Source of the DNA: a virus | IMG/VR virus record: IMGVR_UViG_3300037483_000793 | Span: 1 to 64,000 of that record | DNA length: 64,000 nt | Reading direction: 5' to 3' (one strand) | In this document: piece after piece, positions 54,891-64,000 of the stretch | Numbering within the stretch: the first letter of the stretch is position 1 | Layout of the letters: every line of letters starts with the position of its first letter | Made by a program: the position numbers and the translations under genes | The notes under the pieces: model-generated | The model's input: only the letters and a program-made list of their open reading frames with translations | Databases searched by the model: none | What the model was told of the DNA's origin: nothing

Positions 54891-55091
54891 ATGGGCAAGT
54901 TCGAGATTCGCAAGGGACGGACGGGCGCGTTTCGTTTTGTGTTGATCGCCAAGAACGGTGAAGTACTCGCGACCAGCGAGAACTACACGACCAAGGCGAA
55001 GTGTCACAAAGGCATCAACGCCGTGATCGATCTCTTGCTAGGGCTGCCGACGGCATTACCGCCGATCGTCGACACGACGATCAAGAAGTAG
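54891..55091 (+). CDS. YegP/DUF1508-family protein
   Basis: KFEIRK...FRFVLIAKNGEVLATSENYTTKA.C..GI.AV. Confidence 0.88.
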   Translation: MGKFEIRKGRTGAFRFVLIAKNGEVLATSENYTTKAKCHKGINAVIDLLLGLPTALPPIVDTTIKK

Positions 55092-55094
55092 CAA

Positions 55095-55238
55095 CGAGAC
55101 CAAGGAGAACGTCGAGCCTCGGGATAAAGCAACGGCGAAACCGCCCACGGAGTCGACGCCGTGTAGGCACCTCGCTCGCGCAAACAGGTTGATTGGTCGA
55201 CGCCCGAAACCAGACGTGACAGCTTGGAGAGACAGCAC
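55095..55238 (+). ncRNA. structured intergenic/leader RNA candidate
   Basis: 150-nt non-coding gap with hairpins GGCG/CGCC, CACGG/CCGTG and TGGT/ACCA, and possible crossing pairs CGTCGA/TCGACG and TCGGG/CCCGA. Confidence 0.3.
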
Positions 55239-55240
55239 TT

Positions 55241-55870
55241 ATGAACATGAGCGACGCCACCGAGTGGCTGAAGATGGCCGTGCAGGACGAAGACGCTGAT
55301 GTCTGGCCACGTATCCGCTGGAAGAACGTCGAGCGTCCTGGCTACTTCGGCAAGCGTCGTGACCTGTCCCATGCACGCTACGATCAGCGGCACGGGCGCC
55401 ACCGCTGGCGTCTCCGCTGGCTGGTCGTGACAACCCCAAGCGCGCAGCCGCTCACGCTCAGCTTCGAGCAAGCGTGCAAGCTGATCTACGAAGAGAGCTA
55501 CTTCCGCTACCTACAGGATCGGCCCGACGATCTCGACTTTATCTGCGAGTTCACGGACTGCATCGACAACGCGCCGACGAACATCCACTCGGGACTCGAC
55601 TACACGGCACAGGAAGCTAGCTCAACACACATTCAGGACATCGCAGTGCGCAACGTGCTCGCGCGGCTCGGTCGTACGTTCACGGGCAATCGCACCGAGC
55701 TTCTCGTGATCCGATCGGCTGACTCGAACGGTTACCGTTTCGGGCCGGGCAACGTACCGCTGTTCGCACCGGATCTCGTCATGCAGCCGTCGCTCGCACC
55801 GTCGTGGGCGAACCCGGGCACCGTCGAGGACTTCTGGCAGTCGAACAAGTGGTTGCAGGTTCACCGATAG
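55241..55870 (+). CDS. hypothetical protein
   Basis: 209-aa ORF, aromatic-rich. Confidence 0.7.
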   Translation: MNMSDATEWLKMAVQDEDADVWPRIRWKNVERPGYFGKRRDLSHARYDQRHGRHRWRLRWLVVTTPSAQPLTLSFEQACKLIYEESYFRYLQDRPDDLDFICEFTDCIDNAPTNIHSGLDYTAQEASSTHIQDIAVRNVLARLGRTFTGNRTELLVIRSADSNGYRFGPGNVPLFAPDLVMQPSLAPSWANPGTVEDFWQSNKWLQVHR

Positions 55871-55889
55871 ATCGTGCTAGCCTCGCCGG

Positions 55890-56562
55890 ATGCGCAACGC
55901 GGTGATCATCGAGATCCGCGCCGCCGAAGGTGGCGCCGATGCCAAGCTCTTGGTGGAAGAGCAGACGAAGATCTACATCCGGCTGGCAGGCCGGAGGTCA
56001 CTTTGACGTCGAACTCGTAGAGGAACGCAGCGGCCTCACAGTGCTGCGCGTGACCGGCAAGCACGCTGTCGAGACGTTCCAGCACGAGCCCGGCGGCCAT
56101 CGGTGGCAGAGAATTCCACCCACCGAGAAGCGTGGTCGCGTTCAGACGTCGACGATCACGGTAGCTGTCCTGCCTGAGCCTACAGAAGCGCAGATCGTAC
56201 TGCGCGACGGTGATCTCGACTACAAGTTCTGTCGCGGTTCAGGCGCTGGCGGACAGCACAGGAACGTCACGGACAGTGCCGTGGTGCTGACGCACAAACC
56301 GACTGGCGTCGTCGTTCGTTGCGAGAGCGAACGGTCACAGAACGCGAACAAGGAAACGGCACTCGCCGTTCTGCGCGCGCGGATCTGGGAAGTCACGCAG
56401 CTCGCGCTCGACGGCAAGCGTGCCCATCAACGTCGGCAACAGGTCGGCAGCGGCATGCGCGGCGACAAGATCCGGACGATTCGTGTCCGTGACGACGTCG
56501 TGAACGACCACGTGACGGGCCGCCAGTGGAAGTTTCGCGACTACGAACGCGGCAACTGGTAG
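55890..56562 (+). CDS. class I peptide chain release factor homolog (RF1-like, lacking domain 1), via +1 programmed frameshift: join(55890..56003,56005..56562), 223 aa
   Basis: Frame 0 gives MRNAVIIEIRAAEGGADAKLL...RRSL then TGA. The +1 frame continues DVELVEE...GGHRWQRIPPTEKRGRVQTSTITVAVLPE...RGSGAGGQHRN.TDSAV...ERSQ..NK...RGDKIRT. Confidence 0.9.
55993..56007 (+). promoter_or_regulatory. prfB-type +1 ribosomal frameshift cassette
   Basis: GGAGG-TCA-CTT-TGA-C: internal Shine-Dalgarno, 3-nt spacer, slippery CTT-TGA-C. Confidence 0.88.
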
Positions 56563-56571
56563 TGTCGACGC

Positions 56572-56799
56572 ATGACGCCGATGCACGGCACCGATCTGGA
56601 AGCGATCGTGACGCTGCTCGAACTCGGTGCGATTGAGCTGACGCCGGACCCGTCGGCGCGCTTCACGTTCGAGCAGCTGCTCGCGGAGGCGCGGCGTTAC
56701 GGCGGCGACGAGATCACGCTCGACGAGCGCGACGTTCGCATCGTGCTCGCGGACATGAAGTCGATCAAGCACGAGCGCGGTCTGTACAAGCTCGTCTAA
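56572..56799 (+). CDS. hypothetical protein
   Basis: Last ORF of the rightward operon. Confidence 0.65.
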   Translation: MTPMHGTDLEAIVTLLELGAIELTPDPSARFTFEQLLAEARRYGGDEITLDERDVRIVLADMKSIKHERGLYKLV

Positions 56800-56885
56800 T
56801 TATGCACGCGTGTAGTCAGCGATAGCGTCGAGCATTTCACGTACCGTCGACGCGCGACGAGCCGGTTATGCGGGACTAGTCCCGA

Positions 56886-58145
56886 CTAGACCGGGATCTG
56901 CGCAGCGAGCATCGGATTGAACGCGACGGCTTCGCCAGGCCCACCGGCAGTTCCAGCAGGAGTTGGAATTCCATCGCCAGCGCCGCCTGCGCCGCCACTC
57001 ACGTCGGTCAACCCGAGAAGCGTCATGTTCTCGGTGACAATGAGGATCGAGCCACCCGTACCGCCACCACCACCGCCACCGGGCTCGTTCTCAACCGTAT
57101 CGGCAGCGCCGCCAGCACCGCCGATCGCCCGGATCGATCCGGCGGGCGCGACGATCGTCTTGGCGAAGATCACGAGTGTTCCAGCGCCACCGCCACCACT
57201 GCCGCTACTGCCGCTCACGCCGTTGCCACCACTACCACCGCCGTTGCCGCCACCAATCGCTGTCAACAGTGAGCTGATCGTGATCGCCTGCGACAGCGTG
57301 TATGGCCACGACGGATCAGCCAAGTCGATGCCACCAGCGCCACCCGGTTGCGTCAGGCCGATGGCGCCCGCACCGCCCGTGCCACCCACCCTGGTCGCCG
57401 ACGATTGCGCGGGGCGGTCTGTGCCTCCGATACCAACGTTCCCGGGTCCTGACCCGAAAGGTGGATTGCCTGTCCCGCCGTCGCCGCCGTTGGATGATCC
57501 GATGATCGCGTTCCGGCCGAGTCCCGGCGCAGCCCCCGTGCCACCAGCGCCACCGTTGACGTTGATGTTGCTGCCCGCACCGATCGTGAGCGTGTCCCTG
57601 ACGAAGATCACGACTGCCCGTTGCGTCGCCTGATCCGTGAGACCGCCCACGGTGACACTGTCGCCGGGGCTGATCGTTAGGTTGTCGAAGAACGCGAACG
57701 GTAGCGCCGAACCGACGGGGACTACGGGCGCGCCAGGTGCGCCTGCGAGCGACGTCCATGTTTCGTCACCAGCCGTCACGTAGTCGCCGTACGCACCGTC
57801 GCCATAGATGCTCAGCAGCTGCGACGCCGCGCCGCTACCACCACTGCCGCCCGCGAAGAACAGCGGCGTCAGGCCAATCAACTGCCCCGGCGGTGGGATG
57901 AGCGGCGTGACCGACTCCAGCGTGTGCCAGTATTCGACGTAGACGTTGACGTCCGGATCCGCGCCTGCCAGGCGCGTCGCCGTAACATCGACCGTATCGG
58001 CTGTGATCGTGAAACCGCCTGCGTCGCCGCCGCCGATCTTGGGCATGACCGGCCGACCGTTGACGTTCAGTCGGTGCGGAAGCGATGTGGGCACGCCGAT
58101 AACGAGCCCCGTGAACTGGACGATGTTTTTCAGGATCGTGCCCAT
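56886..58145 (-). CDS. Gly-rich fibre/spike-like protein with N-terminal beta domain
   Basis: GGxGGxG repeats and GGGGGG..G.I.I motifs; N-terminus paralogous to 58460-59080. Confidence 0.75.
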   Translation of the reverse strand: MGTILKNIVQFTGLVIGVPTSLPHRLNVNGRPVMPKIGGGDAGGFTITADTVDVTATRLAGADPDVNVYVEYWHTLESVTPLIPPPGQLIGLTPLFFAGGSGGSGAASQLLSIYGDGAYGDYVTAGDETWTSLAGAPGAPVVPVGSALPFAFFDNLTISPGDSVTVGGLTDQATQRAVVIFVRDTLTIGAGSNINVNGGAGGTGAAPGLGRNAIIGSSNGGDGGTGNPPFGSGPGNVGIGGTDRPAQSSATRVGGTGGAGAIGLTQPGGAGGIDLADPSWPYTLSQAITISSLLTAIGGGNGGGSGGNGVSGSSGSGGGGAGTLVIFAKTIVAPAGSIRAIGGAGGAADTVENEPGGGGGGGTGGSILIVTENMTLLGLTDVSGGAGGAGDGIPTPAGTAGGPGEAVAFNPMLAAQIPV

Positions 58146-58169
58146 CGGTGTAATATACCCCAAAACAGC

Positions 58170-59394: not shown

Positions 59395-60156
59395 GTGTAC
59401 GCTCGAAGCGTGTTGCAGCGCAAGGACATGTACGAGTTGTCCGATCCGCTCAGCCCGCTTGCGCGCGCTGAGGAGCGACAGATCATGCTCGATCTACTCG
59501 ATGTGCAACCGCACCACGTCGTCGTCGACGTCCCAGCGTGGACTGGCTATCTCGCCGAGGGCATCACGAACATCGTCGACCCCAAACAGATCATGTGCGT
59601 CGAAGCGTCGCCGCGCTTCGCCGCAGGTATCTCACCGCGGTTCGATGCGCGCTGCACGTCGCAGATAACCATCCCGATGGCCAATGCGCACGCCGATCGC
59701 CTCGGCAGTCTCGTCGGCATGCATCACTTGCCCGACAAGCTCGCGTTCATCCGCGAGTGCACGCGCGTCGTGAAGCCCGGCGGTCGGCTCGCATTCAGTG
59801 AAGTCGTCGTCGACTCACCCGTCGCCGAGTTCTTGAACGGCCCCGTGCATCGCTACACGACCAACGGTCACAAGGGCGCGTTCGTCAAACCGGGCGAGCT
59901 GTACGACCTCTTGTGGGCTGCAGGCTGCAACAGCATCACCGAGCGCGTCTGCCACCTGTTCTGGGTGTTCTCGTCGCTCGACGAGCTTGCGCGCTTCGCG
60001 CGCGGCTTGCTTGGCTTAGCACGAGCGACCGAGGCACAGACACTGACGGCGATCCGCGAGTACTTCGAGCTGGCCATCACGGTGCAGCCCGATGGAACGA
60101 TCACACAGGTGAAGTTGCCGTGGTCGCTCGCGTACGTCGTCGGAGTGCGATCGTGA
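59395..60156 (+). CDS. class I SAM-dependent methyltransferase
   Basis: VVVDVPAWTGY motif I, CVEASP, LVGMHH, RVVKPGGR. Confidence 0.85.
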   Translation: MYARSVLQRKDMYELSDPLSPLARAEERQIMLDLLDVQPHHVVVDVPAWTGYLAEGITNIVDPKQIMCVEASPRFAAGISPRFDARCTSQITIPMANAHADRLGSLVGMHHLPDKLAFIRECTRVVKPGGRLAFSEVVVDSPVAEFLNGPVHRYTTNGHKGAFVKPGELYDLLWAAGCNSITERVCHLFWVFSSLDELARFARGLLGLARATEAQTLTAIREYFELAITVQPDGTITQVKLPWSLAYVVGVRS

Positions 60157-62801: not shown

Positions 62802-63281
62802 ATGCCCGACGACGACGATCCGGAGGCCGCCGTGGAGCGTATCGAGCGGCTCTCCGACGAGGAGCTGCTGGCCGAGGCCGCCGCCGCAGGCGTCGACGTT
62901 CCAGCTGAGGCCGCGCGGGTCCGCGGGGTGCTCACCGACGCTGTTCGCCGGGCGAAAGCCGATCTCGATTGCTGGAGCCCTGCCCTACCGGCCGCGCTGG
63001 CCGTCAGTCCCGTCTGCGACCTGGTTCTGCTCTACGCCAGCCCGGCCGAGCGGAGTCGGGCTGTCCTTGAAGCGATCGCCCGTCAATCGCCGCCCGCGGC
63101 TCTCATGGTCGACCGGCCGAAGGCCGCCGAGCCCGAGCTGCCGATCGACGTGTCGATCACCGTGCCGTTCGTGGGGCGGTTCCGCGGGGACGGCTGTTCA
63201 CCGATGTGCCGCGTGCTCGACGGCCCCGACCGGCGCCGCGGGTTGCCGCTGAAGTGCATCTGCGGGCGGTACCCGTCGTGA
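62802..63281 (+). CDS. hypothetical protein
   Basis: ATG lies 7 nt after TAGGGT; GTGA overlap with the recombinase. Confidence 0.55.
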   Translation: MPDDDDPEAAVERIERLSDEELLAEAAAAGVDVPAEAARVRGVLTDAVRRAKADLDCWSPALPAALAVSPVCDLVLLYASPAERSRAVLEAIARQSPPAALMVDRPKAAEPELPIDVSITVPFVGRFRGDGCSPMCRVLDGPDRRRGLPLKCICGRYPS

Positions 63282-64000
63282 CCGACCGCGACCTCAAGCC
63301 CGTGAAGCCGAACCTGCTCGACGAGGCGATCGCCCGCAACCTCGATCTCGGCGATCGCACGCGTGAGCTGTACCGCGAATGCCTCGCAGACTTCATCGCG
63401 TTCGCGGGGACCGATCCACAGGGCTGGAACTACGGCGCCGTCGAGGACTGGCTCGGCCGCCTGCTGGCGTCCGGTCGCACGGTCGCCTCGCGCAAGCGCG
63501 GCAAGTGCTCGACGCAAACCGTCGGCGTCTACCGCAAGGCGATTCGCTGCGCGAGCCGCCAGTACGCGCGGCGGCAGGGCCGCCAGGAACTCGACTTCGC
63601 GCGTGACATCGGAAAGATCAAGACGAAGCCGAGTGCTGCACGTGAGCCGCTGACGTACGAAGAGGCGGGCAAGCTGCTCGACACGTGCGTGGGCAACATG
63701 CCGGTCAACATCCGCGACCGCGCGCTGATCGTGCTCGCGCTGCGCTCTGGCTTACGTCGCGGCGGGCTGCACGCGCTCAAGATCGAGAACATCCGACCGC
63801 CGAAGATCACGACGCGCAACAAGGGTGGCGATCCGATCACGTTCGAAGCTGACGACGAAACGTTTGCTGTCGTCGGCGAGTGGCTGCAACTGCTCGCGGT
63901 CGCTGGTCACAAGACCGGTTCCGTGTTTCGTGATACGTGGGCTGCGAACGACGGCACGACGCAGATCGGCGAGCCGCTCACACCGTATCAGCTGTGGCGC
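63278..64000 (+). CDS. tyrosine recombinase/integrase (runs off right edge)
   Basis: Manual translation: T...Y...L.DF, PLTYEE...LL, RDRALIVLALRSGLRRG...L, K (NKGG); the C-terminal catalytic residues lie outside the window. Confidence 0.85.
   Translation, partial: MTDRDLKPVKPNLLDEAIARNLDLGDRTRELYRECLADFIAFAGTDPQGWNYGAVEDWLGRLLASGRTVASRKRGKCSTQTVGVYRKAIRCASRQYARRQGRQELDFARDIGKIKTKPSAAREPLTYEEAGKLLDTCVGNMPVNIRDRALIVLALRSGLRRGGLHALKIENIRPPKITTRNKGGDPITFEADDETFAVVGEWLQLLAVAGHKTGSVFRDTWAANDGTTQIGEPLTPYQLWR

Follow-up and report, generated by a model that had tools for sequence, protein, structure and literature searches.

The stretch of DNA analysed here (the window) comprises the first 64 kb, 64,000 nucleotides, of the 195,792-bp record IMGVR_UViG_3300037483_000793, whose phage nature is indicated by the terminase, DNA polymerase, helicases and ribonucleotide reductase that it encodes. 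Our subject is a plus-strand gene at positions 55890-56562 that has the layout of a class-I release factor (RF) gene divided between two reading frames. In frame 0 an ATG at 55890-55892 opens 38 sense codons (open reading frame 1, ORF1; 55890-56003), which correspond to the initial strand of RF domain 2 and its long first helix, and include the EIRAAEGG motif; the frame ends CGG AGG TCA CTT and is closed by TGA at 56004-56006, with C at 56007. The +1 frame (ORF2, 56005-56562) is then open without interruption from GAC at 56005 to the stop TAG at 56560-56562, and it carries the remainder of domain 2, the GGQ domain (domain 3) and domain 4.

The two frames meet at a cassette, GGAGG-TCA-CTT-TGA-C, that spans 55993-56007. 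Within it a Shine-Dalgarno (SD)-like GGAGG (55993-55997), formed from the Arg codons CGG-AGG, lies 3 nt (TCA) to the 5' side of a CTT codon (Leu38; 56001-56003) that would be the shift-prone P-site codon. The frame-0 stop TGA together with the following C, a weak termination context (56004-56007), will be referred to as the gate, and T 56004 would be the base that is skipped. The string GGAGG-N3-CTTTGAC (GGAGGNNNCTTTGAC) has a single occurrence in the window, compared with no match in 100 dinucleotide-preserving shuffles. A first-pass annotation, made from the sequence alone, had described an SD, a 3-nt spacer and CTT-TGA-C after 38 codons, and on re-reading every one of its statements about the sequence holds. 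No RNA structure is predicted to the 3' side of the shift site (z 0.73), which is also the situation in prfB, and a scan for promoters and terminators around the gene gave nothing beyond chance. Because the preceding gene stops at 55870, 19 nt ahead of the ATG, there is no room for the domain 1 of a canonical factor.

A single four-base step at CTT-T joins the two frames into a 223-aa protein. Both frames match the Pfam PCRF profile collinearly (100-133 for ORF1 and 154-194 for ORF2), and ORF2 also contains the RF-1 domain (E 1e-27), as expected if the +1 frame supplies the rest of the factor, GGQ included, as had been proposed at first pass. The joined product scores 213.6 and 209.3 bits on NCBIfam RF1 models, 142.6 bits on the RF2 model (TIGR00020), 81.7 bits on the PrfH model (TIGR03072; cut-off 166.65) and 39 bits on the ArfB model, where the cut-off is 100 and only residues 100-135 are matched; domains 2 and 4 are present, unlike in ArfB and ICT1-type factors, whose GGQ domain stands alone, followed by a basic C-terminal tail, and which lack a domain for codon recognition. 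The score of 209.3 bits on the RF1 equivalog TIGR00019 is about half of its curated cut-off of 423.25, and it is obtained over model positions 113-325 only, in agreement with the earlier remark that domain 1 is missing. ORF1 aligns with T. maritima RF1 from residue 87 onwards, and the joined protein aligns with residues 87-297 of a solved RF1 (2fvo) with an E value of 1e-45 and no gap across the junction, where ...yirlagrrsldvelve... lies over ...ytryaerkgwnlevae... of the solved protein. Identity to canonical RF1 is about 40% over domains 2-4.

The predicted decoding residues are likewise of RF1 type. The tripeptide 'anticodon' is PPT (56116-56124), within IPPTE and aligned with the PVT of T. 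maritima RF1, and it is accompanied by the Gln of HRWQR and the Thr of QTST; the GGQ catalytic motif (56248-56256) is invariant in two family alignments. The first-pass assignment of the product to the RF1 type is thus borne out by a PxT-type tripeptide, by the order of the model scores (RF1, then RF2, then PrfH) and by the lack of the SPF of RF2. An AlphaFold2 model built from 33 sequences has a pLDDT (predicted local distance difference test) score of 89.5, rising to 96 round the junction, which is predicted to lie between a helix (residues 16-35, preceded by a strand at 4-11) and the next strand (39-46). Among known structures, Foldseek ranks ribosome-bound RF1 and mtRF1a closest to this model (TM 0.86-0.91 across the full length of the protein), followed by RF2 (0.78-0.87) and PrfH (0.67; 9mor_A). 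Since the model scores, the alignment to solved RF1 and the predicted fold agree, we assign the predicted product to the RF1 lineage, as a factor made up of domains 2-4. PHROGs offers nothing for the gene beyond one unnamed RF-like family, and megablast of positions 55000-57000 against GenBank phages finds no match.

Domain 1 of RF1 mediates its interplay with RF3. From its sequence we infer that the product would act as a GGQ hydrolase in the ribosomal A site, with RF1-like decoding and without RF3-assisted recycling. In vitro release does not need domain 1, and truncated RF1 functions in vivo (PMC1586002), so that by analogy the loss of this domain should leave release intact and abolish RF3-assisted recycling (PMC1586002).

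Relatives of the gene provide further insight into the shift site. The first of them, in a 485-kb metagenomic phage, is 47% identical in protein sequence and its tblastn match starts exactly at residue 38; the DNA there has an ATG, 37 codons and GGAGG-GGT-CTT-TGA-C, and continues in the +1 frame, with the break at the same codon as here. About 170 loci came from searches of IMG/VR and of a prokaryote set with a single genome for each species, first with the protein as query and afterwards with an alignment; after parsing of frames by tblastn and removal of duplicates and of canonical RF1 genes, 125 distinct short-form proteins were left, to which we refer as the short family. A +1 shift is required in 110 of them. 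Its site lies without exception 31 codons past the EIR motif, at a CTT with a stop directly behind it; this stop is TGA in 77, TAG in 29 and TAA in 4. A further 3 have an in-frame stop at the gate codon, and 12 have an uninterrupted frame.

The context of the gate was counted on 109 shift members (correction of one locus, L052, brought the family count to 110). In 91 of them C follows the stop, in 16 G and in 2 A, while T follows it in none. The family consensus at -12 to -7 is CGGAGG: at codon -3, AGG accounts for 65 of 69 Arg codons, compared with 6.8% elsewhere in the same genes, and at codon -4, CGG accounts for 79 of 90, compared with 20%. The bias is complete at the P-site codon, with CTT ahead of the gate stop in 109 of 109 and at only 9.7% of Leu codons elsewhere in these genes. 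The cassette, that is CGG-AGG and CTT, is therefore held by selection at synonymous sites. The first-pass annotation had suggested aligning homologs and looking for the SD-N3-CTT-stop arrangement and for synonymous constraint, reckoning that continuous frames in the homologs would tell against a shift; the alignment instead retains the cassette and the need for a shift in 110 of 125, with the strong codon bias just described. We therefore consider it very likely that the gene encodes a 223-aa class-I release factor of RF1 lineage, consisting of domains 2-4 without domain 1, that is made by way of a prfB-type programmed +1 frameshift.

In the mechanism that we propose, which is established for prfB, a ribosome starting at ATG 55890 would have CUU in its P site when UGA-C enters the A site, and at that point termination and slippage would compete. 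Termination would yield a useless 38-aa peptide. Slippage would move the peptidyl-tRNA-Leu from CUU to UUU, and base pairing between the GGAGG that lies 3 nt upstream and the anti-SD sequence of 16S rRNA would promote it; GAC would then be read and the full factor produced, with the junction ...RRSL-DVELVE.... By analogy with prfB we infer that ribosomes do shift here, and that they do so more often the slower termination is. Output would be set by the slowness with which the gate stop is read, which for the UGA gate of this phage would mean by host RF2, and a dependence of the shift rate on RF2 at this gate is accordingly to be expected by analogy.

The choice of stop at the gate bears on what such a device would respond to. 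In a FastTree phylogeny with myxobacterial RF2 as outgroup, the short family forms one clade (support 99, branch length 0.51), with canonical RF1 as its sister group. Ungated viral genes branch off deepest within the family, and the gate is found in a clade of 121 rows (support 95), inside which it has been lost a few times and converted to an in-frame stop at least twice. TAG at the gate requires 20 changes on the tree, and branches with strong support force at least 10 of these; all gate states together require 31 changes. Two paralogs from large contigs of one metagenome-assembled genome (MAG), Polyangiales MAG_AAO_H10.19, are 90% identical and have the gates CTT-TAG-C (L101; JBGARZ010000012.1) and CTT-TGA-C (L108; JBGARZ010000008.1); a genome may thus contain two differently gated versions, and across the family gates of UGA, UAG and UAA all occur. 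The two paralogs differ at 23 positions, 3 of which fall within the 10-residue recognition loop (PPSEKRGRVH and PPGDKRGRVQ). Genes flanking the family loci end in TGA in about 55-60%, TAG in 32-38% and TAA in 6-13% of cases, regardless of the gate stop, and against this background the gates are mildly enriched in TGA and depleted in TAA.

Because the relatives use UGA, UAG and UAA interchangeably, we favour the view that the gate is a valve sensitive to the rate of termination, which would keep a potentially harmful factor scarce and raise its level when termination lags, and that it is not a dedicated sensor of RF2. Several points weigh against this account. There is no obvious SD ahead of ATG 55890. 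The product has Gln where the IHTST of RF1 has His, so that its decoding site is not fully canonical. Across the family the tripeptide is PPT in about half of the members and PPN in about 30, with a few PPG, PPS, PPH and SPT, and some loops are shortened or deleted; this variation at the third residue (T, N, G, S or H), together with the few deleted loops, makes RF1-like stop recognition uncertain. Finally, a product that reads UAA and UAG only would exert no feedback of its own on a UGA gate.

The first-pass annotation had proposed that the device exists to sense host RF2, the phage making its factor only when RF2 is limiting. The prfB-like architecture and the RF2-specific UGA of this particular gene are in line with such a role, as is the presence of TGA in 70% of gated relatives, slightly above a background of about 57%. 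The stop usage of the phage itself has a bearing here. Among about 280 genes of the genome, called by a heuristic based on GC content at third codon positions (GC3), 151 end in TGA (about 54%), 86 in TAG and 43 in TAA; within the window TGA ends 41 of 79 genes, and genome-wide 107 of the TGA stops sit in ATGA or GTGA. The earlier statement that the UGA load is high is thus roughly right; TAG is frequent too. As stated, however, the proposal of a dedicated sensor is not supported by the family. RF1-specific TAG is the gate in 29 relatives and TAA in 4, the switches between stops are many, 90%-identical paralogs of one genome carry different gates, and gate usage is close to background stop usage. 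By comparison, in prfB, where RF2 sensing is the function, TAG is found in 0 of 8,164 motifs (PMC12421855). Moreover, a shortage of RF2 would not be relieved by an RF1-type product. We regard a dedicated RF2 sensor as unlikely, if the most tenable of the alternatives.

Another explanation is that the protein is a rescue-type factor that frees abnormally stalled ribosomes, in damage or defence, in the manner of PrfH, ArfB or mtRF-R, with the gate opening when A sites stay empty for long. The loss of domain 1, as in PrfH, would suit this role, as would the codon-recognition loops that are variable or deleted in some relatives, a patchy and accessory-like distribution (a third RF match in 4 of 201 genomes; see below) and frequent exchange between phages and bacteria. 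Most members, the one in the window included, nevertheless keep RF1-type decoding residues, the PrfH model gives the product about half of the score needed, and the predicted fold is nearer to RF1 than to PrfH. Nor do we see the partners that might be anticipated: RtcB (PF01139) was not found in the 196-kb phage record, and clustering of all ORFs at the 125 loci revealed no conserved neighbour gene, the recurrent groups consisting only of the RF gene and of antisense ORFs that lie within it. A rescue role is somewhat harder to sustain than RF2 sensing. As no neighbour is conserved over the 125 loci, the idea of an operon partner in the style of PrfH-RtcB is unsupported for the family as a whole.

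It might also be supposed that a product of broadened specificity reads its own gate stop, UGA included, and so closes its own regulatory loop. Such autoregulation would allow TGA, TAG and TAA to replace one another at the gate as freely as they do, the tripeptide and the His-equivalent residue are only loosely conserved, and SPT variants occur. The protein in the window, on the other hand, has RF1-type determinants (PPT, the Gln of HRWQR and the Thr of QTST). Nor is the gate codon significantly coupled to the tripeptide or to the His-equivalent residue (Fisher p 0.1-1.0; independent-pair sign tests not significant). One domain-3 column (residue 152 of the window's protein) differs between the TAG and TGA groups at p 5e-7, a value that is uncorrected and ignores phylogeny and to which we give no weight. 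Autoregulation of this kind appears improbable to us.

That ORF1 encodes a small peptide by itself and the downstream ORF a separate product with its own start, for instance GTG 55930, with no frameshift, would accord with a +1 frame that is open from that GTG and with gene callers that predict this ORF only. Against it, the segment of RF domain 2 that ORF1 encodes is conserved and indispensable, with E6, R8, E11, G12 and G13 invariant, while +1-frame residues to the 5' side of the junction are not conserved, and both CTT and the SD are under selection at synonymous sites. In 43 of the 110 shift members, in addition, the +1 frame has no start codon between the preceding stop and the junction, and hence the C-terminal part cannot start alone in those 43. 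We consider two separate products very improbable. A sequencing or assembly error or a recent pseudogene has next to no likelihood, for although a single-base frame break is the commonest of artefacts, this one is shared by 110 distinct sequences, 40-90% identical and drawn from many samples as well as from two finished bacterial genomes, all of which have it at this codon and in the same 15-nt cassette. The gate, the codon bias, the invariant frame-0 residues and the absent +1 starts together exclude error, pseudogene and independent initiation for practical purposes.

A few relatives depart from the pattern. The three with an in-frame stop at the gate codon are in a 466-kb phage (L019/L008), a 183-kb phage (L026/L013) and a 199-kb phage (L024); the contexts are TAT-TAG-A, CTA-TGA-C and CTC-TGA-C, there is no SD, and judging from these sequences readthrough and not a shift would be needed. 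A crude and weak test of ORF coverage in 5.6-kb flanks gave no sign of an alternative code in these three phages. Separately, seven low-GC viral contigs (24-34% GC; L068, L069, L077, L080, L093, L089 and L090) have RF1-like genes that are interrupted by several TGA codons in frame and preceded by little ORF; these are probably short RF1 genes of TGA-recoded phages, distinct from the gate.

The cassette matches that of prfB base for base, from the SD-like GGAGG and its 3-nt spacer to the P-site CUU and the A-site stop with C behind it, and the two devices also share the lack of downstream structure and a class-I RF as product. The present one differs in that the gated protein is of RF1 and not RF2 lineage, and in that the site is at codon 38, in domain 2 at the end of the first helix. 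In Archangium gephyra and Minicystis rosea, two myxobacteria that are considered below, prfB carries GGGGG-cat-CTT-TGA-C at about codon 25, in domain 1, which bears out the first-pass contrast between the two sites; it follows that the site of the short factor is not homologous in position. An RF2-specific UGA with a loop through the gene's own product does not describe the short family either, given its TAG and TAA gates and RF1-type product, and in UGA-gated members the reader of the gate is probably not the product. A survey of the same 8,164 prfB motifs that found TAG in none, unlike the short family with its three stops, reported no programmed shift in prfA (PMC12421855).

Canonical RF1 (prfA; TIGR00019 and NF001859) has in common with the short factor a PxT-type tripeptide, the GGQ motif and, for our predicted model, a TM of about 0.9 to its ribosome-bound form, whereas the short factor is without the domain 1 of about 105 residues and needs a frameshift, which prfA is reported to lack (PMC12421855). 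PrfH (RF-H), which forms a rescue and repair pair with RtcB2, is also a class-I RF homolog that has no domain 1 and keeps GGQ, but the short factor scores 81.7 bits on its model, has a TM of 0.67 to it compared with about 0.9 to RF1, and has neither RtcB nor a conserved neighbour. We know of no PrfH gene that is frameshifted.

Class-I release factors are also encoded by alternatively coded phages, with RF2 in TAG-recoded Lak and Agate and RF1 in TGA-recoded Jade (Borges et al., bioRxiv 10.1101/2021.08.26.457843). The present phage differs from these in using three stops and in having a gene that is short and frameshift-gated, a frameshift being unmentioned in that report (bioRxiv 10.1101/2021.08.26.457843). 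All three stops serve as terminators here, and therefore the standard code is in use; ARAGORN finds no tRNA in the window and no suppressor tRNA in the 196-kb record. A code-change module of the kind carried by alternatively coded phages is ruled out by the three-stop usage together with the absence of a detectable suppressor tRNA. The whole record does contain a tRNA-Met(CAT) and, 25 nt further on, an unassignable tRNA-like gene with a 6-nt anticodon loop (ARAGORN, G000:C1:165980-166157). Mimivirus and Megavirus are similarly reported to encode a termination factor whose own gene is tied to recoding, but it is a eukaryote-type factor of amoebal giant viruses, with another protein family and other signals (Jeudy et al. 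2012, PMC3521657).

The gene is not phage-specific. Viral and bacterial sequences are interleaved on the tree, with 16 label changes, and the bacterial matches are nearly all from Myxococcota. Two complete chromosomes carry it, those of Archangium gephyra (TAG gate) and Minicystis rosea (TGA gate), both of which also hold canonical prfA and prfB. The surroundings in these two genomes comprise glycosyltransferases, a major facilitator superfamily (MFS) transporter, a radical S-adenosylmethionine (SAM) enzyme, a lipase and a sigma factor, with host-like GC3, and no phage genes were seen around either copy. Minicystis rosea has in addition a divergent GGQ-domain paralog (L184; G002:C1:15128425-15129039) in a 388-aa open frame, which sits on a long branch loosely at the base of the short family. 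In a search of 201 genomes sampled from the phylum, a third RF match is present in 4; the score does not part the families cleanly in this search, so only the count of third matches was used, and the sample includes an unpublished genome (G198) that is not one of the four. The closest relatives of the gene in the window are in a viral contig (83%) and then in myxobacterial MAGs, and on this account the sequences hint at a myxobacterial host for the phage.

Other genes of the window were also inspected. Two genes to the 5' side of the release-factor gene is a 66-aa DUF1508 (YegP-like) protein (54891-55091, plus strand), and the upstream 209-aa ORF has no Pfam or PHROG match. Convergent with the RF gene cluster is a 425-aa glycine-rich ORF (56886-58163, minus strand) with no Pfam match, possibly a fibre-like structural protein. 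A protein with a class-I SAM methyltransferase domain is encoded at 59395-60156 (plus strand), and an ORF at the window end (63206-64000, plus strand) has a weak, sub-threshold tyrosine-integrase match (E 2.6e-4).

To our knowledge, programmed +1 frameshifting at CUU-UGA has for forty years been seen as a peculiarity of prfB and has been described for bacterial RF2 only, and in the literature searched, which did not extend to subscription journals, there is no published description of a frameshift-gated RF1-type factor. What is new is that the prfB device is found on another release-factor lineage with its gate codon unconstrained: the cassette has been installed at another place in an RF1-lineage gene, and is kept in more than 100 genes with any of the three stops. 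There is a consequence for annotation. Gene callers predict the downstream ORF alone (170-240 aa), with a database name of at most 'peptide chain release factor 1', and 7,465 protein-database candidates pass an E value of 1e-20; many public entries of this name and length, probably running to thousands, are likely to be N-terminally truncated calls of the short-family gene.

The freedom of the gate codon, together with pairs of paralogs in one genome that differ in their gates, amounts to a natural experiment on what the cassette senses. A compact release factor that has no domain 1, and that phages and myxobacteria exchange, is defined here as well; extra UAG/UAA capacity, back-up under termination stress and rescue are all candidate functions for it. 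We suggest, very tentatively, that these short RF1-type proteins may constitute a third functional class among the class-I release factors of bacteria and phages, induced by slow termination at any stop and acting as an RF3-independent back-up or rescue terminator of broadened or altered specificity, which large phages might carry to sustain termination in the course of infection, or to evade a host response then directed at RF1 or RF2.

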